NCBI GenBank assembly: GCA_013336275.1
Contig: JAAXUA010000005.1
Location: forward strand, 13,863-77,862
DNA from: Candidatus Falkowbacteria bacterium
Lineage (GTDB): Bacteria > Patescibacteriota > Patescibacteriia > Patescibacteriales > GWE2-39-37
Reading direction: 5' to 3'
Length of the DNA stretch: 64,000 nucleotides
This document shows, one piece after another, positions 24,180-63,668 of the stretch. A model generated the notes under the pieces. That model was given only the letters and a program-made list of their open reading frames with translations, was not told where the DNA came from and did no database searches. A program made the translations under genes and the position numbers. Numbering within the stretch: position 1 is the first letter of the stretch; each line of letters begins with the position of its first letter.

Positions 24180-24608
24180 ATGCCAACAATCAACCAATTA
24201 GTTCGCAAAGGGCGTATCAAGACCAAGACCAAGAGTAAGAGTCCAGCCCTGCAGTCCACTTTGGACACTCTGCACCGCAAGCGCACCATTCTGCCTGCCG
24301 GTGCCGCTTTCAAGCGCGGTGTTTGCTTGAAGGTTACCACTACCACTCCGAAAAAGCCTAACTCGGCTTTGCGTAAGATCGCTCGTGTCCGCCTGTCTAA
24401 CGGCATGGAAGTCACCTGCTATATTCCCGGCATGGGCCACAACTTGCAGGAGCATTCGGTCGTTCTGATCAAGGGCGGCAAGACCAAGGATCTGCCAGGC
24501 GTCCGCTACAAGATCGTGCGCGGCGTTTATGATACCCAGGGTGTTGCCAACCGCAGACAGTCCCGCTCCAGCTACGGCGCTAAGAAACCTAAGGCGGCCG
24601 CTAAATAA
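24180..24608 (+). CDS. rpsL: 30S ribosomal protein S12
   Basis: [12 protein letters not shown]...; start moved to ATG 24180 (the track ORF begins 30 nt upstream). Confidence 0.95.
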
Positions 24609-24628
24609 TCGCAAGTAATTAGAAATAT

Positions 24629-25096
24629 ATGAGAGGAAAACCAGCACCAAAACGCAAGATCGAAGGCGACATCCGCTATAACGATATCGACATCGCCAAG
24701 TTCATCAACTATATCATGAAGGATGGCAAGAAGACCGTTGCCCAGAAAGTCGTTTACTCCGCTTTTGATATCATCAAGGACAAGACCAACCAGGATCCGC
24801 GCCATGTCTTCAACAAAGCATTGAAGAATGTCGCACCTTTGCTCGAAGTCCGCGGCAAGCGCGTCGGCGGCGCCAACTATCAGGTTCCGCACCAGGTCCG
24901 TGGCGAACGTCGTTTCGTCTTAGCCTATCGTTGGATCATCGCTGCCGCCGCTGCACGCACCGGCAAGCCTATGGGTGAGAAATTGGCCGAAGAGCTGATG
25001 GCCGCCTTCCGCAACGAAGGCACTGCTATCAAGAAGCGCGACGATGTCCACCGCCAGGCCGAATCCAACAAGGCCTTCGCCCATTTTGCGCGCTAA
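24629..25096 (+). CDS. rpsG: 30S ribosomal protein S7
   Basis: 155 aa; GKKTVAQKVVYSAFDII, VEVRGKRVGGANYQVP. Confidence 0.95.
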   Translation: MRGKPAPKRKIEGDIRYNDIDIAKFINYIMKDGKKTVAQKVVYSAFDIIKDKTNQDPRHVFNKALKNVAPLLEVRGKRVGGANYQVPHQVRGERRFVLAYRWIIAAAAARTGKPMGEKLAEELMAAFRNEGTAIKKRDDVHRQAESNKAFAHFAR

Positions 25097-25132: not shown

Positions 25133-27211
25133 ATGCCCCGAGAATATTCACTCGAAAAGACCCGCAATATCGGCATTATCGCCCATATCGATGCCGGCAA
25201 GACGACCGTGACTGAACGCATCCTGTTCTTTACCGGCAAGAAGCACAAGATCGGCGAAGTGCATGAGGGAGCGGCCACCATGGACTGGATGGAACAGGAG
25301 CAAGAACGCGGAATCACCATTACTTCCGCCGCTACGACTTGTTTTTGGAACAACCATCGCATCAATATTATCGACACCCCGGGCCACGTGGACTTTACCG
25401 TTGAGGTAGAGCGCTCTTTGCGTGTCCTTGACGGCGGCGTCATGGTTTTCGACGGCGTTGCCGGCGTTGAGCCGCAATCCGAGACCGTCTGGCACCAGGC
25501 TGAGAAGTACAAGGTACCGCGCATCGCCTTCATCAACAAGATGGATCGTACCGGCGCCGATTTCTATAAGGATTTGGAGTCTATCCATACCCGCCTGACC
25601 AAGAACGCTTTTCCGATCCAGCTGCCAATCGGCGCTGAAGCGGATTTTTTAGGTATTATCGATCTGTTTGAACGCGAAGCTCACTTCTATCTCGACGAAC
25701 TCGGTACCAAGCACGAAGTCCGTGATATTCCTGAAGACATGAAGGAGAAGGTCGAGACTTTCCGCGCTCAGCTGGTTGAAGCGATCGTCGAGAATAACGA
25801 GACGCTGATGGAGAAATATCTGGCTGGCGAAGAGATCGAAGTGGCAGTCTTGAAAGCTGAATTGCGTAAGGCAGTCATCGCCAACAAGCTGCTGCCAGTG
25901 CTTTGCGGCTCAGCTTTGAAGAATAAGGGCGTCCAGTTCTTGCTCGATTCGATCGTTGAGTTATTGCCTAACCCGTTAGACATCCCGCCAATGATCGCTA
26001 CCGATCCTGAAGACGAAACCAAACAGATTACCGTACGCATTGCTGATGATGAGAATTTTTCAGCGTTGGCCTTTAAGATAGCTACCGATCCTTTTGTCGG
26101 CAAACTGTGCTTCATCCGCGTTTATTCAGGCGTCTTGACATCCGGTTCATATGTTTTGAACGTCTCCTCTGGCGAACGCGAGCGCATCGGCCGCATCGTC
26201 CGCATGCATGCCAATAGCCGTGAAGAGGTCAAAGAGGTTTACTCGGGTGAAATCGCCGCTGTTATCGGCTTGAAGGGAACTACTACCGGCAACACTTTGT
26301 GCGACCCTGAACATCCGGTCTTGCTCGAATCAATCACCTTTCCCGAGCCGGTTATCCAGATCGCAGTCGAGCCGAAGACCAAAGTCGACCAGGAAAAGAT
26401 GGGTATCGCTTTGTCCAAATTGGCCGAAGAAGATCCGACTTTCCGCGTCACTTCGAACGAAGAGACTAATCAGACTTTGATCGCCGGCATGGGTGAGCTG
26501 CACTTGGACATCATTATCGATCGTATGAGGCGCGAGTTCAACGTCGAAGCCAATATCGGCCAACCGCAGGTTGCCTATCGCGAAACCATCAAGACCAAGG
26601 CCGAGGCTGAAGGCAAATATGTCAAGCAGTCCGGCGGTCGCGGCCAATACGGCCATTGCTGGCTCCGCATCGAGCCGAATGAGCAGGGCAAGGGTTATGA
26701 ATTCAATGATGAGACTAAGGGCGGTTCGATTCCGCGTGAATATATCGCTCCGATCGGCAAGGGCGTCAAAGAAGCTCTGGGCCGCGGCGTTCTGGCCGGC
26801 TATCCGATGGTCGACATCAAAGCTACCGTTTTTGACGGTTCATACCACGAAGTCGACTCTAACGAAGCTGCCTTTAAGATCGCCGGTTCCATGGCATTCC
26901 AAGAGGCGGCCCGCAAGGCCAAGCCTGTCATCCTTGAGCCGATGATGAAAGTCGATGTCGTTACCCCGGAACAGTTCATGGGCGACGTGATCGGCGATCT
27001 GAACTCTAAGCGCGGCCAGATCGAAGAGATGGCTGACCAGGGTCAGGCCAAGGTGATTCACGCCAAGGTGCCTTTGGCCAACATGTTCGGCTATTCCACC
27101 AGCTTGCGCTCAATGACCCAAGGAAGAGCCAGCTATTCCATGGAATTCGCCTATTACACCGAGGTACCGAACAATGTCGCTGAGGAAATCATCGGCAAGA
27201 ACAAGAAATAG
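25133..27211 (+). CDS. fusA: elongation factor G
   Basis: 692 aa; [27 protein letters not shown] GTPase motifs. Confidence 0.97.
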
Positions 27212-27237: not shown

Positions 27238-27642
27238 ATGTCCAACCAATTGGAAAAAGCCTTGGCACTATGCAAGAAGACCGGCGACCGGATTATCGTT
27301 TTCGAAAGTCCGCAGGCCGAAAACCCCTTCGTGCTGATGAACTTGACGGATTATGAGAAAATAGCTGTTTCTGGGAGCGAGGTCCGTGGCTTGACAGAAG
27401 CGGAGTTACTTGATAAGATAAATCGCGACATTGCGCTGTGGAAAAGCGAACAGGAGACCCTTGAATCGACCGACAGCGCAGTAGATTTTCTTGCTAGTAT
27501 TAAAGAAGATATGCCACTGAGTGATGAGTCGGCGACCCCCGAATCCAAGCGCTCCCAGTGGGCCATCAAAGACGAGGTTAAGAATGCGGCCGAAGAAGTG
27601 ATCGAAGAAGACCGCCAGTACCTCGAGACAGTCACTTATTAA
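27238..27642 (+). CDS. acidic hypothetical protein with Phd/YefM-antitoxin-like N-terminus, inserted between fusA and tuf
   Basis: 134 aa; GDRIIVFESPQAENPFVLMNLTDYEKI resembles the Phd/YefM core strand-helix; the rest is Glu/Asp/Ser-rich. Confidence 0.5.
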   Translation: MSNQLEKALALCKKTGDRIIVFESPQAENPFVLMNLTDYEKIAVSGSEVRGLTEAELLDKINRDIALWKSEQETLESTDSAVDFLASIKEDMPLSDESATPESKRSQWAIKDEVKNAAEEVIEEDRQYLETVTY

Positions 27643-29375: not shown

Positions 29376-29515
29376 AACGAGATTGTCCTATCGCTCGAAA
29401 GGGCCACTGAGGACTGATGAGTAATCATCACCAAGATCTCAAAACAATCAGTAACGAACTCATGACGATCGACCCATCGTCACCTGCTTTATTTACCCGA
29501 ACTCAGATATCATAC

Positions 29516-29546
29516 AAAAACACCCGGCTTAACCCGGGTGTTTTTG
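29516..29546. terminator. bidirectional rho-independent terminator after rpsJ
   Basis: A5-CACCCGG (29521-27)/CCGGGTG (29334-40 offset: 29534-29540)-T5. Confidence 0.8.
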
Positions 29547-29598
29547 CTTTCAGGGCAAGAAGAAGCGCGCCGTTATCAGCGGCGCGCCTGGGGGATCG

Positions 29599-29772
29599 TC
29601 AGGCATAGATGTTTATCTTTGCCTTCGGTGCAGAGACTGTTAAAGGGGTGGGGTTTTTGAGGAGATATCTCCCCTGATTTCGTGTTGCCTCCAATTGAAT
29701 TTTTTGAAATTCTTCTCGGAAGCCGAGGTCGGTTAAAAAGTTGCTTTTTTGTTTTTTAGGTTTTGCCAACAT
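29599..29772 (-). CDS. 57-aa basic microprotein encoded antisense within the rpsJ-rplC gap
   Basis: Own translation MLAKPKKQKSNFLTDLGFREEFQKIQLEATRNQGRYLLKNPTPLTVSAPKAKINIYA; GGAGG 5 nt upstream; own consensus promoter; runs into the bidirectional terminator. Confidence 0.45.
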   Translation of the reverse strand: MLAKPKKQKSNFLTDLGFREEFQKIQLEATRNQGRYLLKNPTPLTVSAPKAKINIYA

Positions 29773-29807
29773 GGCAGCCTCCGGTTCGGTTGATTAAAAT
29801 ACTTAAT

Positions 29808-29836
29808 AATATAGCATAATTTGTTAAATTTGTCAA
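29808..29836 (-). promoter_or_regulatory. consensus sigma70 promoter (minus strand)
   Basis: TTGACA (complement of 29831-36), 17-nt spacer, TATATT (complement of 29808-13). Confidence 0.65.
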
Positions 29837-29928
29837 TGTATCTTGTGGTTATTTGAAGCCGGTTAGGGCGGCTTTTCTTGGTCCTTGCGGGCCCTTCTGG
29901 GCACTGGCAACACGCCCGTCGCAGAGCC

Positions 29929-29957
29929 TTGACATAGTGCTAGTTTTCGTGTAAGAT
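29929..29957 (+). promoter_or_regulatory. sigma70-like promoter of the rplC-led operon
   Basis: TTGACA (29929-34), 17-nt spacer, TAAGAT (29952-57); predicts a roughly 308-nt leader. Confidence 0.6.
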
Positions 29958-30144
29958 TTAATAGTTCGAAAGAAATATAAGTTTCCAACAAGCAATTTTA
30001 CACTTCTTTTATCTAAAGTTAGCTAAAAGAAAAGGTGAGAAAGCGACTCTGGAAATTGCAGGAGTAACATTCATAAATAAGCTACATAGTCACGGGATAA
30101 AAGTTCGAGCTCAAGAGGGCCTTAAGAACGATTATTTGTTTAGA

Positions 30145-30179
30145 CTGGTTTGTTTATGAACAAAGCAGTTTTTTATTTT
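30145..30179 (+). terminator. attenuator-like hairpin plus U-tract inside the rplC leader
   Basis: CTGGTTTGTT-TATG-AACAAAGCAG (9 of 10 bp) followed by TTTTTTATTTT, about 95 nt before the rplC ATG. Confidence 0.5.
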
Positions 30180-30271
30180 ATAAAGATATTATCGAATTCT
30201 CTGGATCCTTAAGGGGTCTGGCAGGCAAATGAGCCGATGGTTCCGCTTTGCTGGATTGAATTCAACAGATT

Positions 30272-50302: not shown

Positions 50303-50334
50303 GACTGCTGGGGTTTAATCCAGCAGTCTTTTTT
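50303..50334 (+). terminator. terminator of aspS
   Basis: GACTGCTGG/CCAGCAGTC 9-bp stem followed by T6. Confidence 0.75.
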
Positions 50335-50551
50335 GTTCAAGCTCGAGATCGAGCTTGAGGAGTTGTCGTTTTTGCTCTGGGGTGAGCTTGATTCTTTTGT
50401 AGACTGATAACTCAATCTCAAGTTCTTTTCGGGAATCAAGCCGATCCTGGAGCGGGTTTTCTTTGGGGGGAAGGAGAATGTGAGAGGTGGCGGTGGCCGA
50501 GGGGAAGGTCGAAATAAATGCGACGAAGACGGCGGTGATCAGGATTTTCAT
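50315..50551 (-). CDS. small secreted protein (78 aa) with a Spy/CpxP-like LTPEQ motif
   Basis: Signal-peptide-like N-terminus MKILITAVFVAFISTFPSATA; KLTPEQKRQLLKLDLELEQ; AAGGAG upstream; own consensus promoter. Confidence 0.5.
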   Translation of the reverse strand: MKILITAVFVAFISTFPSATATSHILLPPKENPLQDRLDSRKELEIELSVYKRIKLTPEQKRQLLKLDLELEQKRLLD

Positions 50552-50593
50552 AATCCTTTTCTCCTTTCTTGGTAAGGTTCATTTAAACAATCA

Positions 50594-50622
50594 AATATAC
50601 CATAGATTGGTATATTTGTCAA
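50594..50622 (-). promoter_or_regulatory. consensus sigma70 promoter containing a 9-bp inverted repeat
   Basis: TTGACA, 17-nt spacer, TATATT on the minus strand; AATATACCA/TGGTATATT palindrome spans the spacer and -10. Confidence 0.6.
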
Positions 50623-50761
50623 TAGTAATGTCTGTTCGCCTCCCGTTTTATTCATAAAATCTTAATGAATTGTTGCAAAAGTTAGCCAAAGTGGTATGTT
50701 ATTAATATAGGTTAACAAATAAGCCGAATCCGGCCACACATGGCCGAACGGCAACAAATTT

Positions 50762-62978: not shown

Positions 62979-63668
62979 ATGACCACAGACAAGAGCCAAA
63001 ATGAAGAAATTATTAATCTCAGTAATATATCGAAATCTTTTTTTGAGAACGGAAAGGAAATTAGTATCCTAAAAGATTTGAACTTGACGGTCAGGAGGGG
63101 TGAGAAGATTGGCATTATCGGTCCCTCAGGATCTGGTAAATCGACCATTCTCTCAATCATGGCTGGATTGGACAGGCCGGATGCTGGTGAGGTTATCGTT
63201 AATTCAAAAAATTTGAATAATTTGTCAGAGGTTGACTTGGCTAAATTTAGAAATCAGGATATCGGCATTATTTTTCAGTCCTTCGAACTAATTTTGCCTT
63301 TCACAGTAAAAGAAAATGTCGCGGCTCCACAAGAAATTAGCGGGGCTAGTGATAATGATTTTATTCTATCTCTCTTGGAAAGTGTTAAATTATCACAAAA
63401 AACCAATAGTGGAGTTAATAACCTTTCAGGTGGGGAAAAACAACGTACGGCTATCGCCAGAAGTTTGTCCAATAAACCGGAGATTATACTCGCGGACGAA
63501 CCAACTGGGTCTCTAGATAGAATCACCGGCAAGAGTGTTCTGGATCTCTTAATAAACCTAACCGAGGAGGAAAACAAGGTTCTAATAATAATTACTCATG
63601 ATGAAGAGATAGCCAAGAAAATGGACAGGGTGTATGTACTAAAGGACAGAAAGCTGATTTTGATTTAG
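62979..63668 (+). CDS. ABC transporter ATP-binding protein (MacB/LolD/FtsE type)
   Basis: Walker A GPSGSGKST, signature LSGGEKQR, Walker B IILADEPTGSLD. Confidence 0.92.
   Translation: MTTDKSQNEEIINLSNISKSFFENGKEISILKDLNLTVRRGEKIGIIGPSGSGKSTILSIMAGLDRPDAGEVIVNSKNLNNLSEVDLAKFRNQDIGIIFQSFELILPFTVKENVAAPQEISGASDNDFILSLLESVKLSQKTNSGVNNLSGGEKQRTAIARSLSNKPEIILADEPTGSLDRITGKSVLDLLINLTEEENKVLIIITHDEEIAKKMDRVYVLKDRKLILI

Follow-up and report, generated by a model that had tools for sequence, protein, structure and literature searches.

The ribosomal protein genes rpsJ and rplC lie 896 nucleotides (nt) apart in the DNA analysed here, a stretch of 64,000 nt from a genome of the Patescibacteria (Candidate Phyla Radiation, CPR) assigned to Candidatus Falkowbacteria, referred to below as the window. 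To the left of the gap, rpsJ encodes ribosomal protein S10 of 120 amino acids (aa; Pfam Ribosomal_S10 PF00338, E 1e-32; NCBIfam rpsJ_bact TIGR01049, E 2e-40) and is the final gene of a unit composed of fusA, a hypothetical gene, tuf and rpsJ. To the right, rplC encodes ribosomal protein L3 of 402 aa (NCBIfam L3_bact TIGR03625, E 2.8e-60 over residues 5-208) and is the first gene of the rplC-rplD-rplW-rplB... operon. Two independent transcription units meet in the gap, which is not one insertion but is made up of two modules. Module A (29376-29837) is lineage-specific and contains the 3' untranslated region (3'UTR) of rpsJ, a bidirectional terminator, a GC hairpin and a minus-strand gene for a protein of 57 aa with its promoter and Shine-Dalgarno sequence. 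Module B (29929-30271) is a promoter with a leader of about 310 nt ahead of rplC, and the top two matches of a promoter scan within 6 kb both lie in the gap. We propose, with a probability of roughly 0.6, that this leader is a transcription attenuator of the rplC operon which senses a ribosomal protein. All features listed in an earlier note on this DNA were found again, at the same positions or within one base of them. Those on which the proposal depends are given here, together with their counterparts in the sister strain L085 (Ga0209749_1028214) and in two further relatives, L083 and L091:

29013-29375, plus strand: rpsJ, ribosomal protein S10
29838-29928: spacer between the divergent promoters and module junction; the least conserved stretch, 67% identity to L085
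29929-29957, plus strand: promoter of the rplC leader, TTGACA-17-TAAGAT, 10/12 positions; 28/29 identical in L085
29980-30057, plus strand: 5' domain of the leader, from the minimum free energy (MFE) fold
29980-29987 with 30050-30057, plus strand: outer helix; compensatory changes in the consensus fold with L085, L083 and L091
29996-30001 with 30035-30040, plus strand: inner helix
30004-30031, plus strand: long P2 hairpin; P2 sequence common to the window, L083 and L091
30060-30083, plus strand: AGGAGUAAC motif, then the antiterminator strand UUCAUAAAUAAGCU (30070-30083); strand 23/25 identical in L085
30103-30129, plus strand: middle hairpin GUUCGAGCUC-AAGA-GGGCCUUAAGAAC, specific to the sub-family of the window and seen in the window, L085, L083 and L091, its inner stem showing changes
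30145-30179, plus strand: attenuator, a terminator hairpin CUGGUUUGUU-UAUG-AACAAAGCAG followed by U6AU4
30226-30250, plus strand: second hairpin, CAAA-U-GAGCC-GAU-GGUUC-CGC-UUUG, 22 nt before the rplC start codon
30272-31480, plus strand: rplC, ribosomal protein L3

The composition of the gap becomes clear from the same junction in related genomes. For this comparison 80 loci from one-per-species genomes were fetched with S10 as the query, 78 of which contain both rpsJ and rplC, and 16 further metagenome loci were added to give 94 spacers; the closest S10 and L3 sequences all come from metagenome-assembled genomes labelled Falkowbacteria, Parcubacteria, Uhrbacteria or Patescibacteria. The rpsJ-rplC spacer measures 135-563 nt (median 228) in every one of the 78 loci, none being shorter than 100 nt, and 172-435 nt in the metagenome loci, and its GC content is usually 10-15 points under the locus average. 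That the S10 and L3 genes are normally adjacent, the premise of the earlier note, is true of E. coli, where the spacer is 32 nt, and fails for this clade because all relatives have long spacers. A long AT-rich rpsJ-rplC spacer is the rule in the clade, the promoter and leader (about 310-340 nt) being the ancestral state, and what had been described as a 0.9-kb insertion into a tight junction is reduced to a lineage-specific part of only about 460-550 nt (29376 to about 29925).

The two modules can be found apart from each other. In another relative, L112, the fusA-tuf-rpsJ block, the terminator, the GC hairpin and the small gene with its promoter share 83% identity with the window as far as 29837, where the homology ends exactly and no leader follows. 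The homology of L083 and L091 to the window begins near 29925, and both have the same type of leader ahead of rplC; in L083 the 3 kb upstream contain a divergent minus-strand open reading frame (ORF) in place of rpsJ, and in L091 rpsJ is missing from the 843 nt of upstream sequence available (L3 identity to the window 70% and 68%, respectively). The presence of module A without the leader in one genome, and of the leader without rpsJ in others, implies that the window joins two modules at 29838-29928, and by its pattern of conservation the leader is assigned to rplC rather than to rpsJ. The predicted plus-strand promoter TTGACA-17-TAAGAT is present at 10/12 positions and is conserved in L085 and, in the form TTGACG-17-TAAGAT, in L083 and L091; the leader transcript is expected to start near 29964.

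The leader belongs to a set of structured RNAs with a common plan. The spacers of the relatives carry, in order, a P1 helix, the sequence AACUC, a P2 hairpin, the sequence GAAAGU closing P1 and, about 25 nt further on, GGAGGUAAAUCAGC, which is followed by a variable hairpin and then by a hairpin based on CUGG...CCAG with a T-run. When 48 distinct sequences are aligned with MAFFT, AACUC and GAAAGU prove invariant, and P1 and P2 show compensatory changes in 10 of 13 pairs; 90% of the cells are paired, a share that drops to 33-47% if the partners are shifted against each other. The covariation score of 0.605 compares with 0.25 in shuffles and was reached by none of 500. A covariance model of this core matches 60 of the 80 loci, every time on the coding strand inside the rpsJ-rplC spacer, and gives only two weak matches elsewhere in 620 kb (E about 0.7-0.8), so that in this search of the 80 loci the conserved element is found only before rplC.

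Most of the loci without this core are GC-rich and carry the internal loop in circularly permuted order. The standard arrangement P1-A.AC-[P2 hairpin]-AAG.U-P1 is replaced in them by GGAG-(A/U)AAGU-[P1 as hairpin]-UAAC-CUCC, whose own alignment has compensatory changes in 6 of 10 pairs. The permuted form was seen in L031, L032, L038, L042, L053, L057, L060, L063, L065, L067, L068 and L070, and also in L097 and L100/L101. Retention of the same loop in the permuted form indicates that the functional core is the small asymmetric loop between the two helices, in which AC faces AAG. No Rfam 15 family matches at its gathering score in the whole window or in 17 relatives, and at an E of 10 or less neither the gap of the window nor one canonical leader (L056) yields a ribosomal leader, a riboswitch or a T-box; the searchable literature holds no description of such an element, and the sole leader candidate near rplC found there is archaeal. 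The spacer RNA appears, then, to be a separate and apparently undescribed RNA family in many related Patescibacteria (ABY1/Falkowbacteria-like), with the covarying structure, the constant position before a ribosomal protein gene and the expression platform that characterize ribosomal leaders. Of the comparisons proposed in the earlier note, that with relatives shows the leader hairpin to be conserved and the small ORF to be kept in two of them (L085 and L112), the search for covariation was positive, and the Rfam models of ribosomal protein leaders found nothing in the leader.

The expression platform consists of a terminator and an alternative pairing. A hairpin of the form CUGG...CC[AG]G with a T-run is present in 62 of 78 relatives, with the rplC ATG usually 5-30 nt further on, and the strand after GGAGG can pair with the 5' arm of this terminator and, in some clades, also with its loop. 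Across 42 distinct loci, cognate antiterminator/terminator duplexes have a mean energy of -9.8 kcal/mol as against -7.5 for non-cognate ones (p < 1e-4 in a permutation test that ignores relatedness). The two partners have changed together in the following relatives:

L021: antiterminator strand TAGACAGCC, terminator arm GGCTGGTCTA
L073: antiterminator strand AAGCCAAGCC, terminator arm GGCTGGCC
L096: antiterminator strand UUUAAUAAA, terminator arm UUUAUUGAA
L058: antiterminator strand CAAUAAAC, terminator arm GUUUAUUG

In the window the leader has a GC content of 0.33-0.38, compared with about 0.5-0.55 in the flanking genes, and the same platform can be traced. The hairpin with a T-run noted previously indeed forms part of a conserved cis-regulatory element tied to rplC: its arms (30145-30154 and 30159-30168) pair over 10 positions with one G/G mismatch and are followed by TTTTTTATTTT at 30169-30179. 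The block 30141-30180 is identical at 40/40 positions in L085, and near-identical in L083 and L091; the corresponding identities of the sister strain are 91% for rpsJ, 94% for rplC and 99% for the S10 and L3 proteins. The antiterminator strand at 30070-30083 pairs with 30147-30160, that is, with the 5' arm and loop of the terminator, over 14 bp (-13.1 kcal/mol), and UUCAUAAA/UUUAUGAA in the window stands in place of UUCAACA/UGUUGAA in the relatives. The MFE fold of 29964-30185 (-48.3 kcal/mol, z = -2.5) holds the antiterminator helix and not the terminator; forcing the terminator costs 3.4 kcal/mol, and when 30062-30083 is blocked in the folding the terminator forms. The second hairpin, in an alignment with 6 near relatives, has compensatory changes in 6 of its 10 pairs and is possibly a translational operator.

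A profile hidden Markov model (HMM) built from 23 relatives, with the window and its sister strain excluded, matches 30014-30176 with an E of 2.6e-5 as its sole significant match in 64 kb, and the scores of the covariance model form a graded series through intermediate relatives (L096 58, L090 52, L087 29, L091 23 and L085 16 bits). Judged by this similarity, the leader of the window is a divergent member of the spacer RNA family. The window, L083 and L091 make up a sub-family that shares the TTGAC(A/G)-17-TAAGAT promoter, the P2 sequence, the middle hairpin GUUCGAGC...GCCUUAAGAAC and the terminator. Some weaker candidates were discarded. The best match of the first covariance model (R1) in the window, at 24604-24654 (E 0.42), covers only the unstructured 3' part without P1/P2 and is spurious, as is a weak HMM match at 63370-63414 inside an ABC-ATPase ORF. 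A leader peptide was rejected as well, the sole start codon in the leader (30156, 18 codons) not being conserved in L083 or L091.

The leader of the window and its relatives is conserved, its helices covary, its two pairings are mutually exclusive and it is linked to rplC; termination in vivo and the direction of the regulation are what we infer from there. The fusA-tuf-rpsJ unit would end at the strong bidirectional terminator, on which the small gene would converge from the other side, and the rplC operon would start at its own promoter with the leader of about 310 nt. During transcription the 5' domain is expected to fold first, after which the strand 30070-30083 would pair with the emerging 5' arm and loop of the downstream hairpin and block the weak terminator, making read-through of RNA polymerase into rplC the default state. 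A trans-acting factor bound to the internal-loop domain and the adjacent GGAG motif would hold the antiterminator strand, the CUGG...CAG hairpin with its U-run would then form, and transcription would stop about 90 nt before rplC. The factor would most likely be a ribosomal protein encoded downstream and present in excess over rRNA, and the second hairpin before the start codon may add translational control. By analogy only, L4 is the candidate factor, L3 or any other protein of the downstream cluster being possible.

Several observations weigh against this proposal. The terminator hairpin of the window is weak, being AU-rich with a G/G mismatch (-7.2 kcal/mol), and is not called by a simple terminator scan. 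The covariance model R1 has no match in the gap of the window, and the iterated model R2 gives a non-significant 9.8 bits (E 0.3) at 29992-30083. The internal loop of the window reads ACUUC (30002-30006) opposite GAAAAGG (30029-30035), divergent from AACUC and GAAAGU, so that the sensor could be altered or degenerate in this genome; the ACUUC...GAAAAGG variant also occurs in the nearer relatives L084, L086, L087, L089 and L090. Within the sub-clade of the window the antiterminator helix, 82-89% paired, is nearly invariant and for this reason offers little covariation, and the duplex test across the family leaves relatedness out of account. In 45 of 67 relatives no promoter was found between rpsJ and the element, and promoters there are not enriched over shuffles; a promoter at this place was therefore rejected as a general feature, and in most relatives the element would be an intercistronic attenuator and not a 5' leader, the near clade of the window being the one in which it has acquired its own promoter. 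Finally, no convincing rRNA mimic of the leader was found in E. coli 16S or 23S rRNA, and the covariance model has no match in the E. coli rrnB operon. E. coli 23S positions 431-475, UACUCC...GGGAAAGGC, bear a loose likeness to the leader motifs with an estimated chance probability of about 0.2, and a two-strand descriptor finds more matches in E. coli rRNA than in mononucleotide shuffles (10 vs 1.8 in 16S, 23 vs 6.8 in 23S), none of which could be placed in a known rRNA helix. A look-alike of GGAGGUAAAUCAG, namely UGGAGGUAUCAG, was also seen at about 1235-1250 of the E. coli 23S sequence (L082) and is not statistically convincing.

The weakness of the hairpin would fit a leaky stop, and it could be supposed that the element is a constitutive partial terminator, or an RNA-processing or stability element without any ligand, which holds rplC at a fixed lower level than tuf and rpsJ. 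In the 45 of 67 relatives without a promoter after rpsJ it would act on read-through from the highly expressed tuf-rpsJ. A fixed leak, however, needs neither an invariant loop kept through circular permutation nor an antiterminator strand that tracks the terminator arm, and where the element has its own promoter, as in the window and L083/L091, there is no upstream unit against which the level of rplC could be set; we consider such an element improbable. The anatomy of a conserved sensor domain followed by a terminator/antiterminator platform would equally suit a riboswitch, or a non-ribosomal factor such as (p)ppGpp, tRNA or NusB/S10 at a BoxA-like site that couples the synthesis of ribosomal proteins to a growth signal and not to free ribosomal protein. 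By eye, UUCAACAA in the sub-clade of the window faintly resembles BoxA, and CUGG/UGGU could pair with the ACCA of tRNA. Against this stand the lack of any Rfam 15 riboswitch or T-box match even at an E of 10 or less, the confinement of the element to positions before rplC, and its tiny core, a 2/3-nt internal loop with two helices, whose tolerance of permutation would be more usual in a site bound by protein than in a pocket for a metabolite. The main family, moreover, has GGAGGUAAAUCAGC and lacks the BoxA-like stretch. T-box and BoxA were accordingly rejected, there being no model match and the motifs being absent from the main family, and a riboswitch or growth-signal factor in general seems unlikely.

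It is very unlikely that 29964-30179 (start approximate) forms a separate gene for a small RNA of about 215 nt which happens to precede rplC: a promoter and a terminator of its own and high conservation in the window would agree with such a gene, but in most relatives 5-30 nt separate the terminator from the rplC ATG and leave no room for a second promoter, so that rplC must be transcribed through the element, and the element is never found away from rplC. A leak, a riboswitch and a small RNA are all less consistent with the data than an attenuator sensing a ribosomal protein, because of the invariant and permutable loop, the co-varying antiterminator and the constant position before rplC.

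Among known systems the leader of the E. coli S10 operon, which acts by L4-mediated, NusA-dependent transcription attenuation together with translational repression, is the obvious reference. Like it, the present element would control the L3-L4-L23-L2... block, places a hairpin and U-run shortly upstream of the first regulated cistron, has a second structure near the start codon that suggests dual transcriptional and translational control, and has autogenous feedback as its presumed logic. Unlike the E. coli leader, which precedes rpsJ, it is situated after rpsJ and ahead of rplC in the window and all relatives; it has no sequence or structure similarity to that leader and no Rfam match, it possesses an explicit antiterminator alternative, and its host belongs to the Patescibacteria. 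The suggestion that it is an analogous, relocated autoregulatory element therefore holds as regards a functional analogue, with attenuator anatomy and a tie to rplC; as a relocated homologue of the L4 leader it fails, since no Rfam family matches and the RNA forms a separate family. Protein-dependent terminator/antiterminator attenuators are also known from Firmicutes; in one of them, the Bacillus subtilis L20 leader of infC-rpmI-rplT, binding of the ribosomal protein to a 5' domain is thought to favour the terminator over the antiterminator; operon, RNA and phylum all differ from the present case, and the binding is demonstrated for L20 but presumed here. Natural permutations of structured non-coding RNAs have reportedly been treated in a published study, and the sensor domain described here likewise occurs in two circularly permuted topologies among related genomes, the permuted unit being a simple two-helix internal-loop motif in a candidate ribosomal leader. 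The E. coli S10 leader is described as having a narrow distribution in Gammaproteobacteria (PMC3616713). In Table 1 of Eckert and Weinberg, an L4-Archaeoglobi leader candidate is placed directly upstream of rplC, rplD, rplW and rplB, with L4 as ligand by prior analogy only (Eckert and Weinberg, 2020; PMC7247131). The present element resembles it as a leader candidate directly upstream of rplC for which L4 is named by analogy, and differs in that the other is archaeal and of a different motif, with no terminator/antiterminator platform known to have been described for it; the Rfam 15 models match neither the window nor its relatives.

Module A, on the rpsJ side of the junction, contains the following features:

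29376-29514, plus strand: rpsJ 3'UTR, variable; 77% identity to L085
29515-29546, both strands: bidirectional intrinsic terminator AAAAACACCCGG-CTTAA-CCCGGGTGTTTTT, for rpsJ (plus) and the small gene (minus)
29568-29589, minus strand: 8-bp GC hairpin directly after the stop codon of the small gene, then TTCTTCTT on the minus strand
29599-29772, minus strand (ORF 29772-29599): gene for a small basic protein of 57 aa
29782-29778, minus strand: Shine-Dalgarno sequence of the small gene, GGAGG, with 5 nt between it and the ATG; also present in L085 and L112
29836-29808, minus strand: promoter of the small gene, TTGACA-17-TATATT with TG, 11/12 positions

The bidirectional terminator and the GC hairpin, both recognized previously, are present and supported by compensatory changes in L085. 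The former is an inverted repeat of 16 nt (29515-29530/29531-29546), 94% complementary, between an A-run and a T-run; it shows one compensatory change from G-C to A-U in L085, and its stem is kept in L112. Pairing of the two hairpins persists in L085 through the changes from CCCGG/CCGGG to CCCGA/TCGGG and from GCGCGCCG/CGGCGCGC to GCGCGCCA/TGGCGCGC. The GC hairpin is the first terminator-like hairpin of the small gene and the only one that a simple terminator scan lists on the minus strand; the main bidirectional terminator is not listed.

An exhaustive HMMER search found two orthologues of the small gene, of 59 aa each, in L085 and L112. The reading frame is kept across a 6-nt indel in the three orthologues, with a ratio of nonsynonymous to synonymous divergence (dN/dS) of 0.21-0.45 at dS 0.46-1.4. 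The gene is convergent with rpsJ in all three genomes, and promoter, Shine-Dalgarno sequence and both hairpins are retained in L085 and L112. As these three genomes keep the frame, the dN/dS and the signals around it, the 57-aa ORF is by comparative criteria a real, lineage-restricted gene. Of its earlier description, the ORF and its GGAGG are upheld, and the promoter is strong although at 11/12 positions not perfect; the term antisense microprotein does not apply, the gene being antisense to nothing and instead a convergent neighbour of rpsJ on the rpsJ side of the rearrangement breakpoint. Its product has no Pfam or NCBIfam match and no match in a sequence search of the PDB; a word-indexed protein search with it returns only itself, and beyond the orthologues HMMER shows a weak likeness to individual TPR units in large NACHT-TPR proteins. 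Among the 80 loci, blastn, nhmmer and six-frame tblastn found no relatives of the inserted 0.5 kb. The AlphaFold model has a low confidence (pLDDT, the predicted local distance difference test, of 66) and one helix, at residues 16-39.

The lack of a family match and of homologues beyond three close genomes, together with the low-confidence model, might suggest that the ORF is not a gene and that the 0.5 kb is filler that codes for nothing, or what is left of a mobile element; an imperfect 12-nt direct repeat (10/12) occurs near both ends of this segment, at 29390 and 29961. Yet three genomes keep the ORF open across a 6-nt indel that preserves the frame, with a dN/dS of 0.21-0.45 at dS up to 1.0-1.4; its promoter and Shine-Dalgarno sequence are conserved, and so, by way of compensatory changes, are its two terminator hairpins; and the window contains no transposase, terminal inverted repeats or further copies; that the ORF is not a gene is hence quite unlikely. 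The copies of the repeat (ATCGCTCGAAAG at 29390-29401 and ATAGTTCGAAAG at 29961-29972) bracket the lineage-specific segment, one just past the rpsJ stop codon and the other at the predicted start of the leader transcript, and their occurrence there is probably due to chance.

The promoter region of the small gene resembles a site on the minus strand at 50576-50623 of the window, TTGACAAAT...TATATT, which lies upstream of a minus-strand ORF of 78 aa (50315-50551) with a start like that of a signal peptide, and another at 6165-6209 of L008; the likeness between the promoters of the small gene and of 50576-50623 suggests an extended promoter consensus in this genome. In L085 the rpsJ 3'UTR contains two additional blocks of 69 and 54 nt by pairwise alignment, and the rpsJ-rplC gap measures 1027 nt there against 896 nt in the window, which marks this 3'UTR as a hotspot for small insertions. 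The extra DNA in other long spacers (L089, L090, L092, L093, L036, L030, L025, L013, L014 and L015) is rich in the repeated words TACGAAT, TACAAAT and ATTCGTA, which form long imperfect palindromes; it is placed either ahead of the leader, on the rpsJ side, or past the terminator, on the rplC side, and may represent a repeat family or protein-binding sites that prefer this junction.

The genes upstream of rpsJ are:

25133-27211: fusA
27238-27642: ORF of 134 aa, between fusA and tuf
between the 134-aa ORF and rpsJ: tuf

The 134-aa ORF has no family match and is conserved in L112. Inside it, at 27391-27419 and about 300 nt upstream of tuf, is a promoter-like site TTGACA-17-TAAGAT with TG, of the same type as the promoter of the rplC leader. 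On the other side of the gap, L3 of the window has a C-terminal extension of about 190 aa (residues about 211-402), in which a low-complexity stretch rich in Lys, Glu and Ala is followed by a conserved, apparently globular tail (...YSQPAIMDALNELERQYNIDLVPVLTKVAVAELK...). The tail also occurs in L3 of L083 (2941-4083) and is missing from that of L091 (271 aa).

Taken more widely, the rplC-led cluster of ABY1-type Patescibacteria may be governed by a clade-wide RNA attenuator in which a minimal two-helix loop sensor, existing in two permuted forms, mimics the rRNA site of a ribosomal protein; the linkage of rpsJ and rplC would have become breakable thereby, and the small basic protein would be a lineage-specific addition, possibly associated with the ribosome. 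This wider picture we put forward tentatively, as somewhat short of an even chance. If it is true, an autonomous control unit of rplC made the otherwise universal rpsJ-rplC linkage breakable, and the window, L083 and L112 are successive stages of its break-up. The autoregulation of ribosomal proteins is well mapped in E. coli and Bacillus and is, to our knowledge, essentially unknown in the CPR, a group of uncultured organisms with small genomes and unusual ribosomes. An attenuator before the largest cluster of ribosomal protein genes would offer a first way into the question of how ribosome synthesis is balanced in such organisms, and would add a new candidate protein-binding RNA motif whose natural circular permutation helps to define the minimal binding site. 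Genome annotation could also improve, the long rpsJ-rplC spacer then being no junk, and for the evolution of gene order it would mean that an internal control element together with a promoter can free a deeply conserved junction for splitting by insertions and rearrangements.

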